Position numbers and translations under genes: made by a program. Below, piece by piece: positions 1 through 57,438 of a stretch of DNA of 64,000 nucleotides. The notes under the pieces are model-generated. The model was not told the DNA's origin. It saw only the letters and a list, made by a program, of their open reading frames with translations, and searched no databases. The stretch comes from an uncultured Lachnospiraceae bacterium (GTDB lineage: Bacteria; Bacillota; Clostridia; Lachnospirales; Lachnospiraceae), in NCBI GenBank assembly GCA_910585005.1, contig CAJUCN010000007.1:37289-101288 (forward strand), read 5' to 3'. Positions within the stretch are counted from its first letter, which is position 1. Every line of letters starts with the position of its first letter.

Positions 1-944
1 TGGGTAAAACGAAGATTTTTATTGATGGCAGTGAAGGGACTACCGGACTGCGTATCCATGAGCGGTTCGCAGGAAGGGATGATATAGAATTGCTTACGAT
101 TTCCAGGGAGCTGCGGAAAGAGAAAACTGAGCGGGCGCGTTTCATTAACCAGTCGGATATTACATTCCTGTGCCTGCCGGATGATGCGGCAAAAGAATCG
201 GTAAGCCTGATCGAAAATGACAAGGTGAGGGTGATCGACACTTCAACGGCACACAGAACCTGTGAAGGCTGGGCATATGGTTTCCCGGAGCTTTCCAAGG
301 TACATAGAAAACAGATTAAGGAAGGAAAGCGGGTGGCGGTTCCAGGCTGCCATGCAACAGGATTTATCTCCCTTGTCTATCCGCTGGTATCTTCGGGGAT
401 ACTTCCTGCGGATTATCCCGTATCCGCCTTTTCCCTGACAGGATATTCGGGAGGCGGCAAAAAGATGATCGGGGAATATGAGGGCAGCGGCCGGCTGCCG
501 GAGCTTGATTCCCCCAGGGAATATGCCCTTTCCCAAAAACACAAGCATTTAAAGGAAATGAAGGCGGTCACGGGACTTGATAGGGAACCGCTATTTTCCC
601 CTATCGTTGCGGATTATTACAGTGGGATGGTAGTAACCTTACCTCTTTATATTGAATTTTTGAAAGGCTCGCCTTCCCCGGAAGGGCTTTGCCGGTTCTT
701 TGAGGAGTATTATGAAGGGGAACCGTTTATAAAAGTCATGCCTTTTGGGGCGGAAGGAAAAGGCATGATGGCAGGGAATGCCTGTGCCGGATGGGACGGG
801 CTTAGGATTTTTGTGACGGGGAATGAAGAGCGGGTAACCCTCCATGCCCAGTTTGATAATCTGGGGAAAGGAGCATCCGGGGCGGCGATCCAGTGCCTGA
901 ACCTGATGCTTGGCTGTGAGGAAAGCCGGGGGCTTTCTTTATGA
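1..944 (+). CDS. argC: N-acetyl-gamma-glutamyl-phosphate reductase; 5' end at the window edge
   Basis: The frame is open from nt 3 (GKTKIFIDGSEGTTGLRIHERF...), upstream of the tracked Met at 90. It has a PGCHATGF catalytic-Cys region and heads an argJ-argB-argD cluster. Confidence 0.85.
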   Translation, partial: GKTKIFIDGSEGTTGLRIHERFAGRDDIELLTISRELRKEKTERARFINQSDITFLCLPDDAAKESVSLIENDKVRVIDTSTAHRTCEGWAYGFPELSKVHRKQIKEGKRVAVPGCHATGFISLVYPLVSSGILPADYPVSAFSLTGYSGGGKKMIGEYEGSGRLPELDSPREYALSQKHKHLKEMKAVTGLDREPLFSPIVADYYSGMVVTLPLYIEFLKGSPSPEGLCRFFEEYYEGEPFIKVMPFGAEGKGMMAGNACAGWDGLRIFVTGNEERVTLHAQFDNLGKGASGAAIQCLNLMLGCEESRGLSL

Positions 945-29864: not shown

Positions 29865-32489
29865 GTGAGAAAAGAAAAATATTCAGTGACGGGAATGACT
29901 TGTTCCGCATGTTCGTCCCATGTGGAAAAGAGCGTAAGCAAGCTTCCGGGTATGGGAGAAGTAAGCGTAAATCTGCTGACTAACAGTATGCAGGTTGTTT
30001 ACGATGAAACGCTCTGCGGTGAGCAAGGAATCGTTGATGCTGTGGAAAAAGCAGGTTATGGAGCAAGTTTGGCGTCCACAGGAGGAAAGGTGGACGCTTC
30101 TTTGGGAGGTGTTTCGGAAAATTGTCCGGTAGATCCTGCCAGGCAAAATGCCAGCAGGCCAAACGGGCCGGACAGAGAGGCGATCAAAGGGAAAAAGGAA
30201 AACAGGGAAATGAAAGCCAGGCTGACCATTTCCATTGTCTTTATGGTTTTACTGATGGCAGTATCCATGCATCACATGTTTTTTATGTGGCTGCACCTTC
30301 CTGTACCAGAATTTTTTATGAAGTTGTTTCACGGCAATGAAAATGCGTTGACTTTTGCATTTACCCAGTTTTTACTTACATTACCTATTATCTATGTAAA
30401 CCGGAAATATTTTCAGACCGGATATCGGACGTTGCTGCACGGAAGCCCCAATATGGACAGCCTGATTGCGGTAGGCTCCGGTGCGGCGCTCCTATATGGA
30501 ATTTTTGCAATTTACAGGATTGGCTATGGATTAGGGCATGGAGATTTGGCAGTGGTCAGCCGGTATGCATCAGACCTATATTTTGAATCGGCGGGGATGA
30601 TCCTTGCACTGATCACGGTAGGAAAATATTTAGAAACCCGTTCCAAAGGAAAGACGGGGGAAGCGATTGAAAAGCTGATGGATCTGTCTCCTAAGACGGC
30701 GCTTCTTCTTTTGGAGGATGGGACGGAGAAAGAAATTCCCACCCAGCAGCTTGTAAAAGGCGACCGCTTTCTTGTAAAACCGGGAAGCCTGATTCCGGTG
30801 GATGGAGTGATTGAGGAAGGGACTTCCAGCGTAAATGAGGCAGCGATTACAGGAGAGAGTATTCCGGTGGAAAAGGGGCCTGGAGATCCTGTGGTTTCCG
30901 CCACCATGAATAGGGCGGGGAGGCTGATCTGCCGGGCGGTAAAGGTTGGAGAGGATACGACGCTTTCCCAGATCATCCGGTTGGTGGAGGAGGCTTCTGC
31001 ATCCAAAGCGCCCATTGCCAGGCTGGCGGATAAGATTGCAGGGGTCTTTGTACCGGTGGTCATGGCAATTGCCGCTGTCACCTTTATCACATGGCTTTTG
31101 GCGGGAGGCGGGTTTGAAGAGGCAATGTCCTGTGCCATTGCGGTGCTGGTCATTTCCTGTCCGTGCGCGCTGGGGCTTGCAACGCCGGTGGCGATCATGG
31201 TAGGAACTGGTGTTGGGGCAAAGAACGGTATCCTGATTAAGTCAGGCGACGCATTGCAGGCGGCAAGGGATATTGACACGGTGGTATTAGATAAGACGGG
31301 AACGATCACGGAAGGAAAACCCAAAGTTACGGATATCCAATGCTATGGGGAAGATGTGGATGAAAATGAAACGCTTTCCCTGATTGCGGCAGTGGAAAAA
31401 CCCAGCGAACACCCTCTGGCGGAAGCGATCATGGCGGAAGCGGAAAAGAGACATCTGGCAGTTCCGGCAGTGTCAGAATTTCAGGCGGTCTTTGGAAAAG
31501 GAGTCTGGGCAAAGTATGCGGATGGCAGATATTTTGCAGGAAATACAGCTTTTATGGAAGAAAACGGAATTTCCTTATCTTCCAGGCAAAAAGAAAAGAT
31601 CGACCAGTTTTCAGAAGAGGGAAAGACGCCGCTTCTTTTTGCAAAAGACCGTACGCTGCTTGCTGTGATTGCAGTGGCGGATACGGTGAAAGAATCTTCC
31701 AAACTTGCTATGGAAGAATTTAGCAGGATGAAGATAGATGTTGTTATGTTAACCGGAGATCATAAGCGTACAGCACAGGCTGTCATGCGGCAGTTACATG
31801 TGGGGCAGGTGATTGCCGAGGTGCTTCCCGAAGAGAAAGAAAAAGAAATCCAGCGTCTTAAACGGGAAGGCCGGAAGGTGGCAATGATTGGCGATGGGAT
31901 TAACGATGCGCCCGCCCTTGCCGCTGCAGATGTGGGGATTGCGATTGGGGCAGGCACCGATGTGGCTATAGACAGCGCTGATATTATTTTGATGAAGAGC
32001 AGGCTGACAGATGCAATTACGGCAATCCGGTTAAGCAGGGCTGTGATCAAAAATATTAAAGAAAACCTGTTTTGGGCATTCTTTTATAATGTAATTGGGA
32101 TTCCCTTAGCGGCAGGAATCTGGTATCCTATTTTTGGCATCCGGTTAAACCCCATGTTCGGAGCGGCGGCAATGAGCCTTAGCAGCCTGTTTGTCGTTGG
32201 GAACGCCTTACGGCTCCGGAACTTTAAAGGAATAGTGCAAAATCAAAAAATAGAAAAAGAAAAGATGGAGGAAGAAAAAATGGAGAAAACAATGATCATT
32301 GAAGGCATGATGTGTGCACATTGTACAGGAAGGGTGCAAAAGGCATTGGAAGAAGTGGGGGGCGTGGAAAGGGTATCCATGAGCCTTGAGGAAAAGAGCG
32401 CTACAGTTGTGTTGGCTAAGGAGACAGGAGACAGCGTTTTAAAAGAAGCGGTAGAGAAGGCAGGGTACGAGGTAGTGGAGATCCGGTAA
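29865..32489 (+). CDS. copA: Copper-translocating P1B-type ATPase with N- and C-terminal HMA domains
   Basis: Has GMTCSACSSHVEK (N-terminal HMA), a CPC motif (SCPCALGLATP), DKTGT, GDGINDAP and a C-terminal HMA (GMMCAHCTGRVQK). GTG start with RBS GGAAGGAG. Confidence 0.93.
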   Translation: MRKEKYSVTGMTCSACSSHVEKSVSKLPGMGEVSVNLLTNSMQVVYDETLCGEQGIVDAVEKAGYGASLASTGGKVDASLGGVSENCPVDPARQNASRPNGPDREAIKGKKENREMKARLTISIVFMVLLMAVSMHHMFFMWLHLPVPEFFMKLFHGNENALTFAFTQFLLTLPIIYVNRKYFQTGYRTLLHGSPNMDSLIAVGSGAALLYGIFAIYRIGYGLGHGDLAVVSRYASDLYFESAGMILALITVGKYLETRSKGKTGEAIEKLMDLSPKTALLLLEDGTEKEIPTQQLVKGDRFLVKPGSLIPVDGVIEEGTSSVNEAAITGESIPVEKGPGDPVVSATMNRAGRLICRAVKVGEDTTLSQIIRLVEEASASKAPIARLADKIAGVFVPVVMAIAAVTFITWLLAGGGFEEAMSCAIAVLVISCPCALGLATPVAIMVGTGVGAKNGILIKSGDALQAARDIDTVVLDKTGTITEGKPKVTDIQCYGEDVDENETLSLIAAVEKPSEHPLAEAIMAEAEKRHLAVPAVSEFQAVFGKGVWAKYADGRYFAGNTAFMEENGISLSSRQKEKIDQFSEEGKTPLLFAKDRTLLAVIAVADTVKESSKLAMEEFSRMKIDVVMLTGDHKRTAQAVMRQLHVGQVIAEVLPEEKEKEIQRLKREGRKVAMIGDGINDAPALAAADVGIAIGAGTDVAIDSADIILMKSRLTDAITAIRLSRAVIKNIKENLFWAFFYNVIGIPLAAGIWYPIFGIRLNPMFGAAAMSLSSLFVVGNALRLRNFKGIVQNQKIEKEKMEEEKMEKTMIIEGMMCAHCTGRVQKALEEVGGVERVSMSLEEKSATVVLAKETGDSVLKEAVEKAGYEVVEIR

Positions 32490-32520
32490 ATCAAAGCCCC
32501 CATTGACGGAAAAATGTATT

Positions 32521-32560
32521 TGATGCAAAAATGATGCAAAAATGATGCAGTTATGATGCA
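32521..32560 (+). repeat. Four tandem TGATGCA motifs with 11-bp phasing
   Basis: TGATGCA at 32521, 32532, 32543 and 32554, upstream of a TGATAAAAT extended -10-like box (32567-32575) and the ORF at 32622. Confidence 0.6.
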
Positions 32561-32621
32561 ACCCTTTGATAAAATAGGCTTGTAACTACTAACGGCCGGA
32601 AAGAAAAGGAATGGTTGCATT

Positions 32622-33596
32622 ATGGACGAAAGAGAGCTGAAGCAAGGGGATGTGGGGGAACTTTTCGCAGAAAAAGAAACAAAGCGGGGCAAAAAAAGCA
32701 TTATCCTGGTATGTGGTGTGATAGGGACGGTTACGCTGGCTGTGATTGTATGCTGTGTTTTCTTTTTAAAGAGGGATCAGGGGTATCAGGATTATACGGT
32801 ACAAATGAAGCAATATTATGTGGAGTATTCCGAGGCATATGATTATTGGGATGTAATTACCGTGGAATACCCGTATTTGGAAGGGATTGACGAGGAGGTG
32901 CAGGGGCAGTTAAATACGCTGATGTATGATGCGGCCATGGACAGGGTGAATTATTGGCATCTTGATCCCTCGGAGGATGTGAAAGCATATCAGGAAGAGG
33001 TATTTTCCATTTTTTGCAGTGATGTAAACTGCCAGGCAACATATCAAAGCCAGTATCTTCTCAGCCTGGATTACCTTGAGTGGTATTCAGCCGGACATCC
33101 GGTGTGGGCGACGAATGGGACAGAGCGGACTCTTATGCTGGACTTGGTGACAGGGCAAAGTTATGAACTTGCGGATATCTTGGAAATAAACAGGGATTTT
33201 GCAAGATGTTGGGATAAGTCCCTTAGTGACCGTTTGGAAGAGGAGTACGGGGATGAAGAGGATTTGGATATCCTGGTTTCCTGGTTTACCCAATCGGATG
33301 AAGAAGTAAATGAAGATTTCGTCTGCCGTCCCTTTTTCTATCTTACGCCGGAAAAAGACTTTGTAATCGGTGTTTCTCTTGATCCGATCTTGTGGAGGGC
33401 ATATACTTACGAGCCGGTTAGCTGGAATTTTTATGCCCGGCTGAGTTATGATGAGATAGAACCTTTTAAGAAGGATAGTGGATTTTGGGACAAATATGAG
33501 AAGTCGGAACCGGCAGGGGAAGTATTTCCATGTGAGGATAAAAAAGAAAATATTTGGCTTGGGGAGGATGCAGGGATATGGGACTACGAATATTAA
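32622..33596 (+). CDS. Membrane-anchored hypothetical protein
   Basis: 324 aa with one N-terminal TM helix and an acidic extracytoplasmic domain. Confidence 0.55.
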   Translation: MDERELKQGDVGELFAEKETKRGKKSIILVCGVIGTVTLAVIVCCVFFLKRDQGYQDYTVQMKQYYVEYSEAYDYWDVITVEYPYLEGIDEEVQGQLNTLMYDAAMDRVNYWHLDPSEDVKAYQEEVFSIFCSDVNCQATYQSQYLLSLDYLEWYSAGHPVWATNGTERTLMLDLVTGQSYELADILEINRDFARCWDKSLSDRLEEEYGDEEDLDILVSWFTQSDEEVNEDFVCRPFFYLTPEKDFVIGVSLDPILWRAYTYEPVSWNFYARLSYDEIEPFKKDSGFWDKYEKSEPAGEVFPCEDKKENIWLGEDAGIWDYEY

Positions 33597-52658: not shown

Positions 52659-53435
52659 GTGGAATTGGTGATTTGGGTAGTATTTGAGACAATATGTGTG
52701 CTGGCACATTTATTGATGAGTATGATACCGGTATCAGACCCTGTTTGGGTATGGACGTTAAGCGCATATAGCCAGGTGTTTATTACTTTGATTTCTATTT
52801 ACATTTTCCGGAGTTATTTATGCAAAGAACCTGCTCTGTGTTCATTGGGAAGGAAAGAATTGAAATACTGCGTTTGGGCAGCCGTCATAGGGGTTGGGAT
52901 ATGCCTTGGGCACAGAGCCTTGCTACTGTTTTTTTGGGATTTTGTAGAAAAAAGTTTAAGGGATATCGGGGGAGTATCGATATCGAACAATGCGGTATTT
53001 GTAAATACATTACCGGGAATCCTGTATACGGCTTTGCTTGGGCCTGCGACGGAGGATATATTTTACCGTGGGGTTATTTTTCACGTCGCAAGGCAGAGAT
53101 GGGGCAACCTCTATGCAGTCCTTATTTCAAGTTTGCTGTTTGCAATCTGGCATTTAAACGGCGTCCAGTTTATTTCGGCTTTGTTTATGGGCGTGATCAT
53201 CGGGTACGCCGTTATTTTGACAGACAATGTCTATATCGGGGTGGTGATCCATGTTGTGAATAATGCTTTTTCACTTTTCAATGGGGCTGTTTTGAATAAG
53301 CTGTGGGATTTCGAGGGCAGTTTTGCTTTTGCACCGATTGGAATCGGGATTTTATTATTGGTGTTTGGTATTTTGATGCTCCAGCGTGAAACGCGGAAAG
53401 TGGCATGGCGGATAAGCGCAGAAAAGGAGCAATAG
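52659..53435 (+). CDS. CPBP-family intramembrane glutamic endopeptidase (CAAX protease/Abi-like)
   Basis: Has TEDIFYRG, FAIWH and HVVNN motifs in a polytopic protein. GTG start. Confidence 0.85.
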   Translation: MELVIWVVFETICVLAHLLMSMIPVSDPVWVWTLSAYSQVFITLISIYIFRSYLCKEPALCSLGRKELKYCVWAAVIGVGICLGHRALLLFFWDFVEKSLRDIGGVSISNNAVFVNTLPGILYTALLGPATEDIFYRGVIFHVARQRWGNLYAVLISSLLFAIWHLNGVQFISALFMGVIIGYAVILTDNVYIGVVIHVVNNAFSLFNGAVLNKLWDFEGSFAFAPIGIGILLLVFGILMLQRETRKVAWRISAEKEQ

Positions 53436-53552
53436 AAAGGAATCCGGATGCGGCGCCTGCAGGGGGTCTTGTTGTCAGCAATTAATCTTAGAAATTTTTT
53501 TTGGATTCACATAATAGTTGCTGTAATATCAATCGTACTGTGATATAACCCG

Positions 53553-53608
53553 TGTGTCTCTTGTTTGCTGAGGATAAATTGTGGTTGGAGATTTAGAAAA
53601 GTGGAAAT
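53553..53608 (+). repeat. 56-bp perfect direct repeat, copy 2
   Basis: Identical to 52372-52427. The offset is 1181 bp. Confidence 0.95.
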
Positions 53609-53761
53609 GGCCAGAAAGACTGTCCAAGACATAAAATATTTGAATATTATGTAAAATTTTGTAAAAATATGTAAAATATTGACGCATAATACATATAATA
53701 CAGATAAATTGTGTATATAAAAAGAAAAATGAAAAAATAAAGAAAAAATTGAAAAAATGTG

Positions 53762-53790
53762 TTGACAAATTATGCTGAACTGGTTATAAT
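53762..53790 (+). promoter_or_regulatory. Perfect consensus sigma-A promoter with no ORF downstream
   Basis: TTGACA, 17-bp spacer, TATAAT. Preceded by an AT-rich tract carrying three TGTAAAA repeats (53650-53676). Confidence 0.7.
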
Positions 53791-54121
53791 AAAATCACAA
53801 AAACAAATTCACATAGATAATCTTAAGGAAAAGGAGGTACGGTCCACCAAGAACATAAGATCAGCTATTTGATACTAAATAGCATAATGTGAAAGAGTTA
53901 GCTTTTAAAGTACAAAAGAACAAAGTACCAAAGAAAGCGAATTTCAAATTCGTATCCAGTACAGAAGAAAAAGTAGCGAATTACATCAAGATGAGTTAGA
54001 AACGTTACAGTACACATTGTACAAAAGAAAAAAGGGAAAAGTACGAAGGAGAAAACAACTGAATAGGGAAACAGTCCAAAAAGGAAAGGGAGGTAAAGAC
54101 CATTGGATAGCATAGTTTAAG

Positions 54122-54157
54122 AGCGGGTGTTGATCGAGAAGATTGATGCCCGCTTTT
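54122..54157 (+). terminator. Intrinsic terminator 1 of the candidate RNA
   Basis: 14-bp stem (AGCGGGTGTTGATC / GATTGATGCCCGCT, with G-U pairs) followed by TTTT. Confidence 0.6.
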
Positions 54158-54159
54158 AT

Positions 54160-54188
54160 GCGGTGTGAAGGTGTGCACCGCCATTTTT
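54160..54188 (+). terminator. Intrinsic terminator 2 of the candidate RNA
   Basis: GCGGTG / CACCGC stem followed by CATTTTT. Confidence 0.55.
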
Positions 54189-54258
54189 ATGTAAAAAATT
54201 TTTTTTGTAGAAATTTGCAGATGAATCATGTATGATAATTCATATGGAGGATTATAGC

Positions 54259-55581
54259 ATGGCAAAGAATGAAGATATTGTTGAAGAGTTAGACCGGAGG
54301 GCATACAGGCGGAAAAGAAGGATCAGAAATCAGGCGATCTCATATATAGCGCTTGCGGTTATATTGATTGGACTGGTGATCGGCTGCGTGATCGGTGTCG
54401 GGAAGGTCATGAAGATATTGAATGAGAAAAAGCTTTCGGAGGATCTTCAAAAGCAATTGGAGGAGCTTACACAAAATGAAGAAGAACCGGCTACGGTGGA
54501 AGCGCCTGATGATCAGATGGAACCTGTTGGAGAGACGGATTATTTGGATGAGATCGTAAATAATTGCATTGCAGAGATGCCTCTTGAGGATAAGGTGGCA
54601 GGGCTGTTTATCATTACGCCGGAAGCGCTTACTGATACGGATATTGTAGTCAGGGCAGGCGATACCACCAAAGAAAAGTTAACAGCACATACCATAGGGG
54701 GGCTGATTTATTCTTCCCAAAATATTAAGGATTCCGAACAACTCATGGAGATGCTCAAAAACACTAAAAATTGGAGCAGATACCCCATCTTTTTAGGGAT
54801 AGAGGAAGAAGGCGGAGAGGTAAGCAGGGTCGCCCAGGCGGGGCTTGCTGACAATGTAGGACCGATGGCGGAGATAGGAAGTTCGGGAGATGCGGCCATT
54901 GCCAAAGAAGCAGGTACGGCAATTGGATCTTATTTGTCAGGGTATGGATTTAATATGGATTTTGCACCGGTAGCGGATGTGGCCGTGGAAGAAAATGCAA
55001 TGATTGGGGAGAGATCTTTTGGCAGTGACGTTAATTTGGTTTCTCCAATGGTTGCGGCTGCGGTGGAAGGATTGCAGGAAAGTGGTGTCAGTGCATGCCT
55101 GAAGCATTTTCCGGGGCTTGGGAACACCACGGAAGATCCCCATAATGGGATGGCAGTTACAGAAAAGACGATGGATGATTTTGCGGTTACGGATTTTCCG
55201 GTATACCAGGCAGGGATTGGCGCGGGGGTTGATTTTATCATGGTAAGCCATCTTTCGGCGCCCAATGCGTTGGGGGATAATACACCGGCATCCCTTTCGC
55301 CTGTGATGATCACAGATACCCTTAAGGGGCAATTAGGATACCAGGGGATCGTACTTACAGACGCTATGGACATGGCAGCGATCACGGAATATTACACGTC
55401 CGGGGAGGCGGCCGTAAAAGCGCTTTTGGCGGGGGCGGATATGATCCTTATGCCGGAAAATTTCCTGGAAGCTTATCAGGGAGTATTGGATGCCGTAAAT
55501 GACGGCACATTGTCAGAAGAACGTATTGACGAATCTTTGAGAAGGATCTACCGTGTCAGATACAAGGACAGGGTGGAATAA
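54259..55581 (+). CDS. Membrane-anchored GH3 N-terminal-domain hydrolase (NagZ-like beta-N-acetylhexosaminidase)
   Basis: Basic N-terminus plus a TM helix, then GH3 motifs (KHFPGLGNT, the MVSH region). I prefer ATG 54259. Confidence 0.8.
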   Translation: MAKNEDIVEELDRRAYRRKRRIRNQAISYIALAVILIGLVIGCVIGVGKVMKILNEKKLSEDLQKQLEELTQNEEEPATVEAPDDQMEPVGETDYLDEIVNNCIAEMPLEDKVAGLFIITPEALTDTDIVVRAGDTTKEKLTAHTIGGLIYSSQNIKDSEQLMEMLKNTKNWSRYPIFLGIEEEGGEVSRVAQAGLADNVGPMAEIGSSGDAAIAKEAGTAIGSYLSGYGFNMDFAPVADVAVEENAMIGERSFGSDVNLVSPMVAAAVEGLQESGVSACLKHFPGLGNTTEDPHNGMAVTEKTMDDFAVTDFPVYQAGIGAGVDFIMVSHLSAPNALGDNTPASLSPVMITDTLKGQLGYQGIVLTDAMDMAAITEYYTSGEAAVKALLAGADMILMPENFLEAYQGVLDAVNDGTLSEERIDESLRRIYRVRYKDRVE

Positions 55582-56077: not shown

Positions 56078-56150
56078 GCGCGAGTGGCTCAGTTGGTGGA
56101 GCGCGACCTTGCCAAGGTCGAGGCCGCGGGTTCGAGTCCCGTCTCGCGCT
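56078..56150 (+). tRNA. tRNA-Gly: tRNA-Gly (anticodon GCC), no encoded CCA
   Basis: Hand-folded cloverleaf: acceptor GCGCGAG/CTCGCGC, D-arm GCTC..GAGC, anticodon stem CGACC/GGTCG with loop TTGCCAA, T-arm GCGGG TTCGAGT CCCGT. Confidence 0.9.
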
Positions 56151-56247: not shown

Positions 56248-57438
56248 TTACAATGCCTTTGTTATGAGGTCATAGGTTTCTTTTTCGGTCAGCGGATTGT
56301 AGATATATTCTAAGGTTGTGGAAAGGTTGCTATGCCCTAACATTTCCCTGATACAATCTAGCGGTACACCGTTCGCGTTCAGATTACTTGCATAGGTCTT
56401 ACGCATTTTATGGGTGCTCTTTGTGCGTACTCCCTGTCTCTCCGCAAACTTCTCCAATACATAAGCTATCTGTCTGGATGTAATGCGTTCCCCATCCCTC
56501 ATAAAAATGTACTTCCCCTGTTTTGGTATCTCCTCTAAGATTGATACCGCTTTCGGAATAAGGATAACAAAACGGTCACGGTTTGTTTTGGTATGCTCTA
56601 CTACCTCATATTGGTTTGTTTCCTGATTTCTGACTTCTTCACGGACAATATGAAGATGTGAAAGGTCTTTGCAGTCTTCCCATTTAAGGGCGGCTAACTC
56701 ACCCACACGCAGGCCGAGCAAAAAATTGATTTTTACAGCCAGAAATGCAACATCCTCTGTCTCTGTATACATTTTGTCAAGATACTGGTTCAGTTCCTTT
56801 AATTCCTCTGTATTGTAAGTCTCTGTCCTGCCCGTTTTCTTGACAATCTGTCTGTACTTGACGTATATCTCTACCTTATCCATAGGATTATCAGTCAGAT
56901 ATCTTTTCCTTATACTATATGTATACATCCCATTGAGAATCGTCTTTATGTTGCACCACTCTTTTCTGGACAAGTTAAACTCCTTTACAATACGGTTGCA
57001 CTCCTGTTCCAATATAAGTTCGTCAATCTTCTTGATTTTCATATCATGCAGGACAGACGGTTCAAAATATTTGCGGTAGTGCTGTCTGTGCCTTTTAATG
57101 GTATTAGAACTGTTTGTAACAGTAGCCTTATACGCAAGCCATTCTTCATAAAGTCCGTAAAATGTTAAGTTGTCAATGTGCGTATTAGCGAAATATATTG
57201 GAATCAGCTTATCCAACAATTCCTCTTTTGATTGTGCCTTGATATTTTTGCGCTTTCCTTTTTCATCTTTATAGCAGGTCTGCCAACGTCCGTTTGCAGT
57301 AGACGGTGGAGTAATCGCATAAGGGTGCATTTTTAATATAGTATCTATCTTCTTTGACATAAGCATATCAAGCACACTGTCTATATTTATTATACCAAGT
57401 TCTACGGCATTTTGCAATATTTCGTTCTGTTTTTCCAT
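56248..57438 (-). CDS. Tyrosine recombinase / integrase
   Basis: 396 aa with a C-terminal catalytic region (HKMRKTYAS ... LGHSNLSTTLEYIY). Adjacent to attL. Confidence 0.9.
   Translation of the reverse strand: MEKQNEILQNAVELGIINIDSVLDMLMSKKIDTILKMHPYAITPPSTANGRWQTCYKDEKGKRKNIKAQSKEELLDKLIPIYFANTHIDNLTFYGLYEEWLAYKATVTNSSNTIKRHRQHYRKYFEPSVLHDMKIKKIDELILEQECNRIVKEFNLSRKEWCNIKTILNGMYTYSIRKRYLTDNPMDKVEIYVKYRQIVKKTGRTETYNTEELKELNQYLDKMYTETEDVAFLAVKINFLLGLRVGELAALKWEDCKDLSHLHIVREEVRNQETNQYEVVEHTKTNRDRFVILIPKAVSILEEIPKQGKYIFMRDGERITSRQIAYVLEKFAERQGVRTKSTHKMRKTYASNLNANGVPLDCIREMLGHSNLSTTLEYIYNPLTEKETYDLITKAL

Follow-up and report, generated by a model that had tools for sequence, protein, structure and literature searches.

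In Bacilli, a strong Shine-Dalgarno (SD) sequence without an initiation codon is described as an element that stabilises transcripts (PMC3997798), and stabilisation of downstream RNA by such STAB-SD sequences is also presented in a second report (PMC5737220). According to work on rnTrpL, the terminated product of an attenuator can be a functional trans-acting small RNA (sRNA; PMC6614838). The CRISPR-associated CreTA systems are described to carry an RNA toxin, CreT, in which a strong promoter, an SD and a mini open reading frame (mini-ORF) of few codons are directly followed by a stem-loop (PMC8501985). The rreB RNA of Bradyrhizobiaceae is reported as a small, conserved and independently transcribed mRNA of 165 nt with one SD of 17 nt as ribosome-binding site and a tiny ORF of 14 codons, which was found in the ribosome fraction (PMC5711450). 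Here we present an RNA gene at positions 53797 to 54157 (+ strand) of a stretch of 64,000 nt, hereafter the window, from an uncultured Lachnospiraceae bacterium (assembly GCA_910585005.1, contig CAJUCN010000007.1, positions 37,289 to 101,288). The comparative evidence indicates that it is a real, conserved and apparently undescribed sRNA gene of distinctive, ribosome-directed design, and with moderate confidence we regard it as a stand-alone, strongly promoted gene of an undescribed sRNA family, restricted to the Lachnospiraceae and built for ribosome occupancy at both ends. By analogy its mode of action would come closest to that of a STAB-SD stabiliser joined to a minigene or to a leader-peptide attenuator; it is a member of neither class, nor of the CreT or rreB type. 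The elements that carry this reading are, in coordinates of the window:

53762 to 53790, + strand: sigma-A type promoter TTGACA-17-TATAAT, a unique perfect match in the window that is kept in relatives
53797 to 54157, + strand: predicted RNA of about 361 nt, 66% purine, delimited by the promoter position, the limits of conservation and the hairpin
53820 to 53861, + strand: 5' SD module within the stem ATCTTA (53820-53825)/TAAGAT (53856-53861), recognised from its sequence, stem 82-90% paired
54088 to 54094, + strand: SD of the mini-ORF, GGGAGGT, with the SD core 8-10 nt 5' of the start in homologues
54103 to 54120, + strand: mini-ORF TTG GAT AGC ATA GTT TAA (MDSIV, stop), defined by comparison of homologues
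54122 to 54157, + strand: terminal hairpin of 14 bp with the loop GAGAA, then TTTT, the intrinsic terminator of the RNA, supported by covariation

In contrast to rreB, the SDs are 5-8 nt long and occur in at least two modules, the ORF of five codons is placed at the terminator, and a long purine-rich body is present; the sequences are unrelated and the hosts belong to different phyla. With the orphan RNAs Clostridiales-1, raiA, ROOL and OLE the new RNA shares that it is a conserved, stand-alone, strongly promoted RNA of middle size from gut Clostridia, but it has no Rfam match, shows little covariation beyond three helices and is set apart by its SD and mini-ORF modules. A search of the whole window against Rfam 15 at gathering thresholds, which had been proposed as a test of the sRNA reading, gave a tRNA at 56078 as sole match and assigned the RNA to no family, nor did a cutoff of E ≤ 10 yield one; over 53400-54400 the best E-value was 1.8 and all scores were far under the gathering scores. 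Among 20 loci from other genera Rfam found Clostridiales-1 alone, on the opposite strand beside the RNA in locus L163. In this locus (genome G043) the Clostridiales-1 RNA (RF01699, 124.7 bits, L163:2203-2369, +) is divergent and lies just 5' of the promoter of our RNA, so that two orphan RNA genes stand back to back. A full-text literature search yielded no paper describing the RNA, with unlisted descriptions possible, for example in the supplements of large structured-RNA screens.

The perfect promoter at 53762-53790 had been noted as the only one among those inspected in the preliminary description, which was made from the sequence of the window alone; a search of both strands of the 64 kb confirmed it as the sole perfect TTGACA-17-TATAAT, with 0.01 matches expected from shuffled sequences. 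Promoters of the form TTGACA(AAT)-16..18-TATAAT/TATACT are found at the correct distance in 101 of 107 related loci, the other six being four cut contigs and two chance matches in Bacteroidota. Transcription would start at the A at 53797, 7 nt past the -10 element. The resulting stretch of 361 nt (adenine 45%) has a fold energy of -89.2 kcal/mol compared to -63.1 in shuffles (z = -5.9), and it is read from the + strand, as G.U pairs of the hairpin become C.A mismatches on the opposite strand. Across 122 unique examples the RNA ranges from 179 to 884 nt in length with a median of 378 nt. A protein-coding gene of more than 30 codons on either strand was rejected because no longer reading frame is kept in relatives: the GTG frame at 53889 (36 codons) has at most 11 codons in 13 of the 19 relatives from the genus, and for an ORF of 71 amino acids on the minus strand the matches are split over frames in many relatives, the long minus frames shifting from one relative to the next. 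The minus strand is free of stops over such long runs because the + strand is rich in purines. The sole other stretch of the window that is equally purine-rich (0.68-0.69 in windows of 360 nt) lies at about 32180-32700 (+).

Each of the 24 genomes sampled from the genus carries the unit, with 68-83% identity, and all alignments run up to the end of the first hairpin and no further. In 19 relatives from the genus, the mean nucleotide identity of the RNA is 79% over 98% of its length, and the neighboring genes reach 68% (GH3), 71% (LUD-domain) and 78% (SHMT); the RNA unit is conserved like the SHMT gene and more than GH3. A pattern of its invariant columns, run on 185,579 species genomes, gave 87 stretches, nearly all of them in Lachnospiraceae (Kineothrix, Parablautia, Suilimivivens, Acetatifactor and others) besides two chance matches in Bacteroidota. 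The cultured Kineothrix alysoides (locus L096) is one of the carriers. A covariance model built from the 3' module (R1) matched 54 of 150 sampled Lachnospiraceae genera at E ≤ 1e-3 and 41 at E ≤ 1e-5. In an order-level sample it matched 4 of 11 Lachnospiraceae genomes and none of 139 genomes from 33 other families. In a class-level sample 18 of 151 genomes were matched, and of the 15 loci that were read only two, both from Lachnospiraceae, were true; the other matches among these 15 were rejected as ordinary terminators at gene ends or coding sequence. Judged from these samples, the RNA is restricted to Lachnospiraceae and to about a third of its sampled genera. Some genomes have 2-3 copies and the genome of the window has one. 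At one locus (L164, G187:C57) two complete units, each with its own promoter, stand in tandem about 570 nt apart. Comparison of the homologues thus establishes the unit and its distribution, its strand, its hairpin and the constraints on its mini-ORF, and likewise its independence from GH3.

The preliminary description had assigned two strong SD-like sequences to an otherwise ORF-less transcript. Both sequences are present, the second at 54088-54094 and not near 54098, but the statement that this second SD has no usable start codon was wrong: TTG at 54103, 9 nt past GGAGG, begins a frame of five codons that ends with TAA at 54118-54120, 1 nt before the terminator stem, and with this conserved mini-ORF the term ORF-less is incorrect as well. 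An nhmmer profile of the 3' module matched 122 of 127 loci, all of which carry the mini-ORF frame (119 by pattern and three by eye, L012, L071 and L101), and the same design is found in 32 of 32 further module matches from other genera (30 by pattern and two by eye, L173 and L175). In all 154 homologues a TTG, ATG or GTG start opens a frame of 5-8 codons, after which TAG, TAA or TGA stands directly before the terminator stem. Of 96 unique variants, 87 start with TTG, 8 with ATG and 1 with GTG; 93 have 5 codons, 2 have 6 and 1 has 8; and 67 stop at TAG, 20 at TAA and 9 at TGA. TGG does not occur at the place of the stop in any of the 96 variants, where about 6 are predicted from the A/G variation at both positions. 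The length changes of +3, +3 and +9 nt preserve the frame, and the stop codon is 0-1 nt from the first pairable base of the stem in every variant.

Synonymous changes are frequent in the mini-ORF (GAT/GAC, AGC/AGT, GTT/GTC/GTA). The peptide MDSIV is encoded in 60 of the 96 variants, others being MESIV, MDSVV, MDQEV, MDLSV or MDNLETIV, and peptides are freer in the 32 module matches of the other genera (MEKQN, MEPTH, MGQTDR, MITEDSIF and others). To judge from these variants, the pattern is the signature of a frame being read and not of a conserved peptide. Since the peptide varies freely save for D/E at position 2, the selected feature would be the act of translation at this place and not its product.

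The stem of the terminal hairpin spans 54122-54154 and its T-run ends at 54157. In an alignment of 77 sequences 99.3% of the cells of its 13 pairs are paired, 9 pairs are changed on both sides, and all shuffled and slid controls remained far from this pairing, so the hairpin can be taken as proven as far as comparison permits. Two tandem terminal hairpins had been proposed, and both find support: the first is backed by covariation, and the second at 54160-54188 by a terminator scan, which reported this second hairpin only and not the first.

The first SD, AAGGAGGT at 53831-53838, indeed lacks a start codon, as had been recognised from the beginning. It lies 35 nt from the predicted RNA start, CCA occupies the start-equivalent place (53847-53849), and an in-frame TAA follows at 53856-53858. 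When the two modules are aligned, GGAGGUACGGUCCA CCA AGA ACA UAA of the 5' module corresponds to GGAGGUAAAGACCA UUG GAU ... of the 3' module, and on this alignment the 5' SD is a paralogous module of the 3' one without a start codon. In RNAs with at least two modules the start-equivalent triplet of the 5' module is CCN in 73 of 97 and a genuine start in few, and the 5' SD module lies at a median of 37 nt from the predicted 5' end. In some genera the modules are stacked; L122 (G062:C57) has four and L133 (G041:C10) five, with frames of 0, 1, 2 and 6 codons. Among the frames of L133 are a start-stop, ATG-TAA, and ATG-TTC-TAG. Elsewhere in the genome of the window, the SD module was not found again. 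The comparison of the SDs relies on the anti-SD sequence as generally given; the 3' end of the 16S rRNA is not assembled in this genome.

A strong 5'-proximal SD without an initiation codon is what the RNA has in common with the STAB-SD and other 5' stabilisers (cryIIIA, ermC and hbs leaders), and in sequence it agrees with them in having AAGGAGGT 35 nt from the predicted start and CCA in place of a start codon. In contrast to these, the element here heads a non-coding RNA and not a long mRNA, the SD is set in a stem-closed loop, a paralogue of the element stands at the 3' end, and a stabilising effect is deduced by analogy. A STAB-SD-type stabiliser would be the most likely role of the 5' SD. 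The remaining elements of the RNA are:

53808 to 53893, + strand: 5' domain with the helix TTCACAT (53808-53814)/ATGTGAA (53887-53893), which encloses the 5' SD module and the variable hairpin in the minimum-free-energy fold
53864 to 53883, + strand: variable hairpin GCTATTT/AAATAGC, 3 of 7 pairs changed on both sides within the genus
53910 to 54050, + strand: purine-rich body with GTAC-N-RRRGR repeats (53910, 53925, 53959, 54019, 54041), defined by GTAC enrichment and motif counts
53910 to 53928 and 54010 to 54022, + strand: GTAC/GTAC mini-hairpins within the body
53938 to 53952, + strand: hairpin CGAATT/AATTCG within the body
53973 to 54008, + strand: central helix GTAGCG (53973-53978)/CGTTAC (54003-54008) around a variable insert, with pairing variants in other genera

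The helices differ in the support they receive. Within the genus, compensatory changes are confined to the variable hairpin and the terminal hairpin; the former, at 53864-53883, had already been pointed out as a short hairpin, and its pairing is maintained by such changes. The helix TTCACAT/ATGTGAA is paired in 95.8% of cells in the genus, with one-sided changes only, which give no proof of the helix; AUCUUA/UAAGAU and UUCACAU/AUGUGAA are kept nearly without informative changes. The GTAC/GTAC pairs and GUAGCG/CGUUAC are invariant within the genus. In other genera the central helix appears as GTAACA/TGTTAC, GTAATG/CATTAC or GTAGTG/CACTAC, its homologous placement having been made by eye, and this gives it moderate support across genera, a chance match of a hexamer being likely in a search of 150 nt.

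The body between the SD modules is highly variable in length across carriers. The roughly seven AGTAC-containing motifs of the preliminary description correspond to 7 GTAC sites in the 361 nt, compared to 0.95 expected, and none of 2000 simulations reached 7. Five of the nine matches of the window to GTACNRRRGR fall within the RNA stretch.

Taken together, we favor the stand-alone sRNA gene with the following mode of action; what it says about the level of transcription, about binding and translation by ribosomes and about any consequence for function is inferred from the elements above. The start-less 5' SD would, exposed in its loop, dock 30S subunits and shield the RNA from 5'-to-3' decay in the manner of a STAB-SD. 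The second SD would drive translation of the five-codon mini-ORF, whose stop abuts the terminator stem; given the usual footprint of a ribosome, one that stands at this stop would have to melt the GC-rich base of the stem. Most likely, the mini-ORF would thereby couple the integrity of the 3' end, or read-through of the terminator, to ribosome availability, and the body that separates the two sites, rich in purines and in GUAC, would be the part that does the work or binds a partner. More tentatively, the RNA may stand for a new class, namely an abundant RNA that always bears a 30S subunit on the start-less SD and a translating 70S ribosome on the five-codon minigene, which overlaps the terminator, and whose stability, 3' end or read-through would report or buffer the pool of free ribosomes. 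The self-complementary GUAC and CCA(A/U)UGGA sites could in addition allow copies of the RNA to pair into multimers once the ribosomes leave.

Several observations weigh against this interpretation. The GA after the start codon is near-constant and the start lies inside the partly self-complementary CCA(A/U)UGGA, which suggests a constraint at the RNA level beyond what translation explains. In codon 4 the third base varies less than the first two, which is a non-coding pattern. The clade of the window mostly uses the weak TTG start (87/96), and the SD is frequently just GAGG. The U-run following the stem comprises 3 nt or fewer in 61 of the 77 sequences, so termination may often be leaky. Finally, GH3 follows in 12 of 32 module matches from other genera even where the other neighbors, including LUD and SHMT, are lost, and the persistence of this linkage in distant genera hints at a link in cis.

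The first of these observations can be accommodated by a purely non-coding RNA, in which the GAGGUA-N3-4-CCA-(A/U)UGGA modules would serve as repeated recognition sites for a protein or an RNA or, with GUAC, as self-pairing palindromes and the mini-ORF would be a side effect. Such a reading also gains from the repetition of the module 2-5 times per RNA, with frames of 1-6 codons or none among the five copies in L133, from the conservation of the SD-to-start spacer itself, from the near-invariance of the G and A after the start (the second codon begins with G except in L101 and L168), from the self-complementarity of CCA(A/U)UGGA and GUAC and from the roughly 7-fold enrichment of GTAC. A binding motif does not explain, however, why the U before the G of UGGA is constant, why the first base of the start triplet is T, A or G and never C, why the in-frame triplet before the stem is TAG, TAA or TGA and never TGG, or why insertions measure 3, 3 and 9 nt. 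Moreover, no partner turned up: CsrA is not associated with the RNA, no Hfq was detected in the family, and a short-word BLAST of the RNA against its own genome for base-pairing targets gave no more than chance matches (58 same-sense and 55 antisense, the best of 16 nt). We therefore judge the purely non-coding RNA to be rather unlikely.

The second alternative, which the preliminary description had placed beside the sRNA, concerns the gene that follows in the window, together with two elements at its border:

54160 to 54188, + strand: second terminator-like hairpin and T-run, specific to this genome, from the terminator scan
54208 to 54236: promoter-like site (9/12 matches)
54259 to 55581, + strand: membrane-anchored GH3 gene with glycoside hydrolase family 3 N-terminal domain (Pfam PF00933, E = 6.9e-73)

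Here the unit would be a cis leader and ribosome-dependent attenuator of the NagZ-like GH3, to which the strong promoter would belong, a ribosome on the mini-ORF covering the 5' arm of the terminator and so causing read-through, with the RNA of about 360 nt as a by-product. A short ORF placed so that the position of the ribosome decides the fate of the terminator hairpin is the classical attenuator layout, and a short ORF with SD right before the intrinsic terminator is found in all 154 homologues. In the clade of the window, 92 of 98 loci (not de-duplicated) have GH3 co-directionally 3' of the RNA, at gaps of about 50-450 nt with estimates down to 46-90 nt in some loci, and the linkage in other genera and the leaky terminator suggested by the short U-runs point in the same direction. 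Yet in the other-genus set, 32 module matches from 31 loci, GH3 is missing within 1.5 kb in 20, of which two are uninformative as their loci end within 171 nt. The next genes elsewhere are unrelated (amino-acid kinase, asparaginase, histidine kinase, DUF1538, solute-binding proteins, aldose epimerase, CoA-transferase), and four loci have a convergent gene with Pfam support (CNNM, two radical-SAM, RecQ) at a distance of 29-52 nt from the hairpin.

The genomes with 2-3 copies likewise do not fit an attenuator of GH3. The spacer to GH3 is not conserved, the 100 nt between hairpin and GH3 being unmatched in 18 of 19 relatives. In contrast to known attenuators, the ORF is without diagnostic codons, its stop is set directly against the stem, about 300 nt of RNA that precede it are conserved far beyond the needs of an attenuator, and in several genera no co-directional gene follows. 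An alternative antiterminator was not seen on reading the alignments, for which no dedicated search was made. In the window itself, the second terminator and the weak promoter-like site between RNA and GH3 argue that GH3 is largely on its own. Because the downstream genes differ elsewhere, four are convergent, and multiple and tandem copies exist, the unit is a stand-alone gene and not just a leader of GH3: a discrete, strongly promoted sRNA, perhaps acting as a ribosome sponge, fits the comparative evidence, and the GH3 leader, which we consider unlikely, fails as a general explanation. Given the linkage, the short U-runs and the short gaps, read-through into GH3 may still be a secondary role of the sRNA that is specific to the clade.

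A further option is a minigene comparable to CreT or to the lambda bar minigenes, in which heavy translation of the mini-ORF before a stable stem-loop would capture ribosomes or a tRNA, for instance the tRNA-Ile reading AUA, and thereby slow growth. Codon 4 is AUA in most variants, and AUA is the least used Ile codon here (18%). However, the single AUA is swapped for GUA, GAA, GCA, UCA or ACA in many variants. The layout of promoter, SD, mini-ORF and stem-loop is described as essential for CreT, but so are two consecutive rare codons, and CreT is reported to be inactive with GUG or UUG (PMC8501985). In contrast, our mini-ORF has no tandem rare codons and starts mostly with the weak UUG. Neither creA nor another antitoxin, cas genes or CRISPR adjoin the RNA, which is flanked by SHMT, LUD and GH3 genes instead, and the chromosomal gene, present in one copy in the genome, looks vertically inherited and syntenic, unlike a toxin module. 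A tRNA trap is accordingly very unlikely.

A CsrB/RsmZ-like or Hfq-binding sponge that would titrate a global RNA-binding protein via GGA or A-R-N motifs is suggested by the two GGA per module about 16 nt apart (A-N-GGA in the SD, UGGA at the start) and by the A-R-N runs of the body, but was rejected as extremely improbable, as GGA is not enriched (8 observed compared to 6.9 expected), presence of the RNA is not associated with CsrA (of 41 genera positive for the RNA at E ≤ 1e-5, 18 have CsrA and 23 lack it, compared to 77 of 150 with CsrA overall), and Hfq (PF17209) was found in none of 151 family genomes including this one, with 5 control genomes positive. CsrA occurs in about half of the sampled family genomes, in some of them with many copies (8 matches in the genome that carries the four-module RNA, G062, and 3 in that of the window). 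A stand-in for a missing housekeeping RNA was rejected too, since the genome encodes 6S RNA and tmRNA at other places.

Upstream of the promoter lies one further conserved element:

53722 to 53761, + strand: conserved A-tract run, candidate UP element or curved-DNA region, aligned in 20 genus members

The A-tracts (53722-53759), immediately 5' of the -35 element, are largely kept across these 20 members, and they are a candidate UP element or curved DNA. Phased TGTAAAA repeats had earlier been thought to resemble an UP element. Three such repeats exist (53650, 53660, 53670), but they are placed 86-112 nt upstream of the -35 element, and in this form the triplet is specific to the window, relatives carrying 0-2; the conserved upstream feature is the A-tracts. 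Genus-wide (L002-L020), an A/T-rich block is found about 85-100 nt upstream of the -35 element (window about 53640-53700), for example AAAATTATGAGAAAATTT in relatives. The block presumably resembles the CodY-box consensus, and it may belong instead to the divergent LUD promoter.

The neighbors of the RNA in the window are the SHMT, LUD-domain, CAAX-protease and GH3 genes. The CAAX-protease (Rce1-like) gene at 52659-53435 (+), between the LUD gene and the RNA promoter, is present in this genome only among 20 genus members, and DNA-like contigs of low depth from four metagenome runs all part from the window sequence at 53553; the gene looks like a strain-specific insertion beside the RNA. Farther 3', behind GH3 and an MGMT-like gene, a tRNA gene (56078-56150, +) is directly followed by a phage-type integrase gene (56248-57438, -), and this pair probably lies at the border of an integrated element.

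In the mammalian gut, Lachnospiraceae belong to the most abundant bacteria, and to our knowledge almost nothing is known about the regulatory RNAs of this family, which seemingly does without Hfq (0/151 genomes). Owing to its conservation at the level of a core gene, its consensus promoter and its presence in about a third of the sampled genera, the RNA is a candidate for a major housekeeping or regulatory RNA. With a decoy ribosome-binding site and a five-codon frame set against a terminator, it would show in compact form how ribosomes act on a non-coding RNA. If confirmed, the RNA could enter Rfam as a new family for the annotation of hundreds of genomes, and it would add an example from a Gram-positive gut commensal to the few known ribosome-tethered mini-mRNAs and minigenes.

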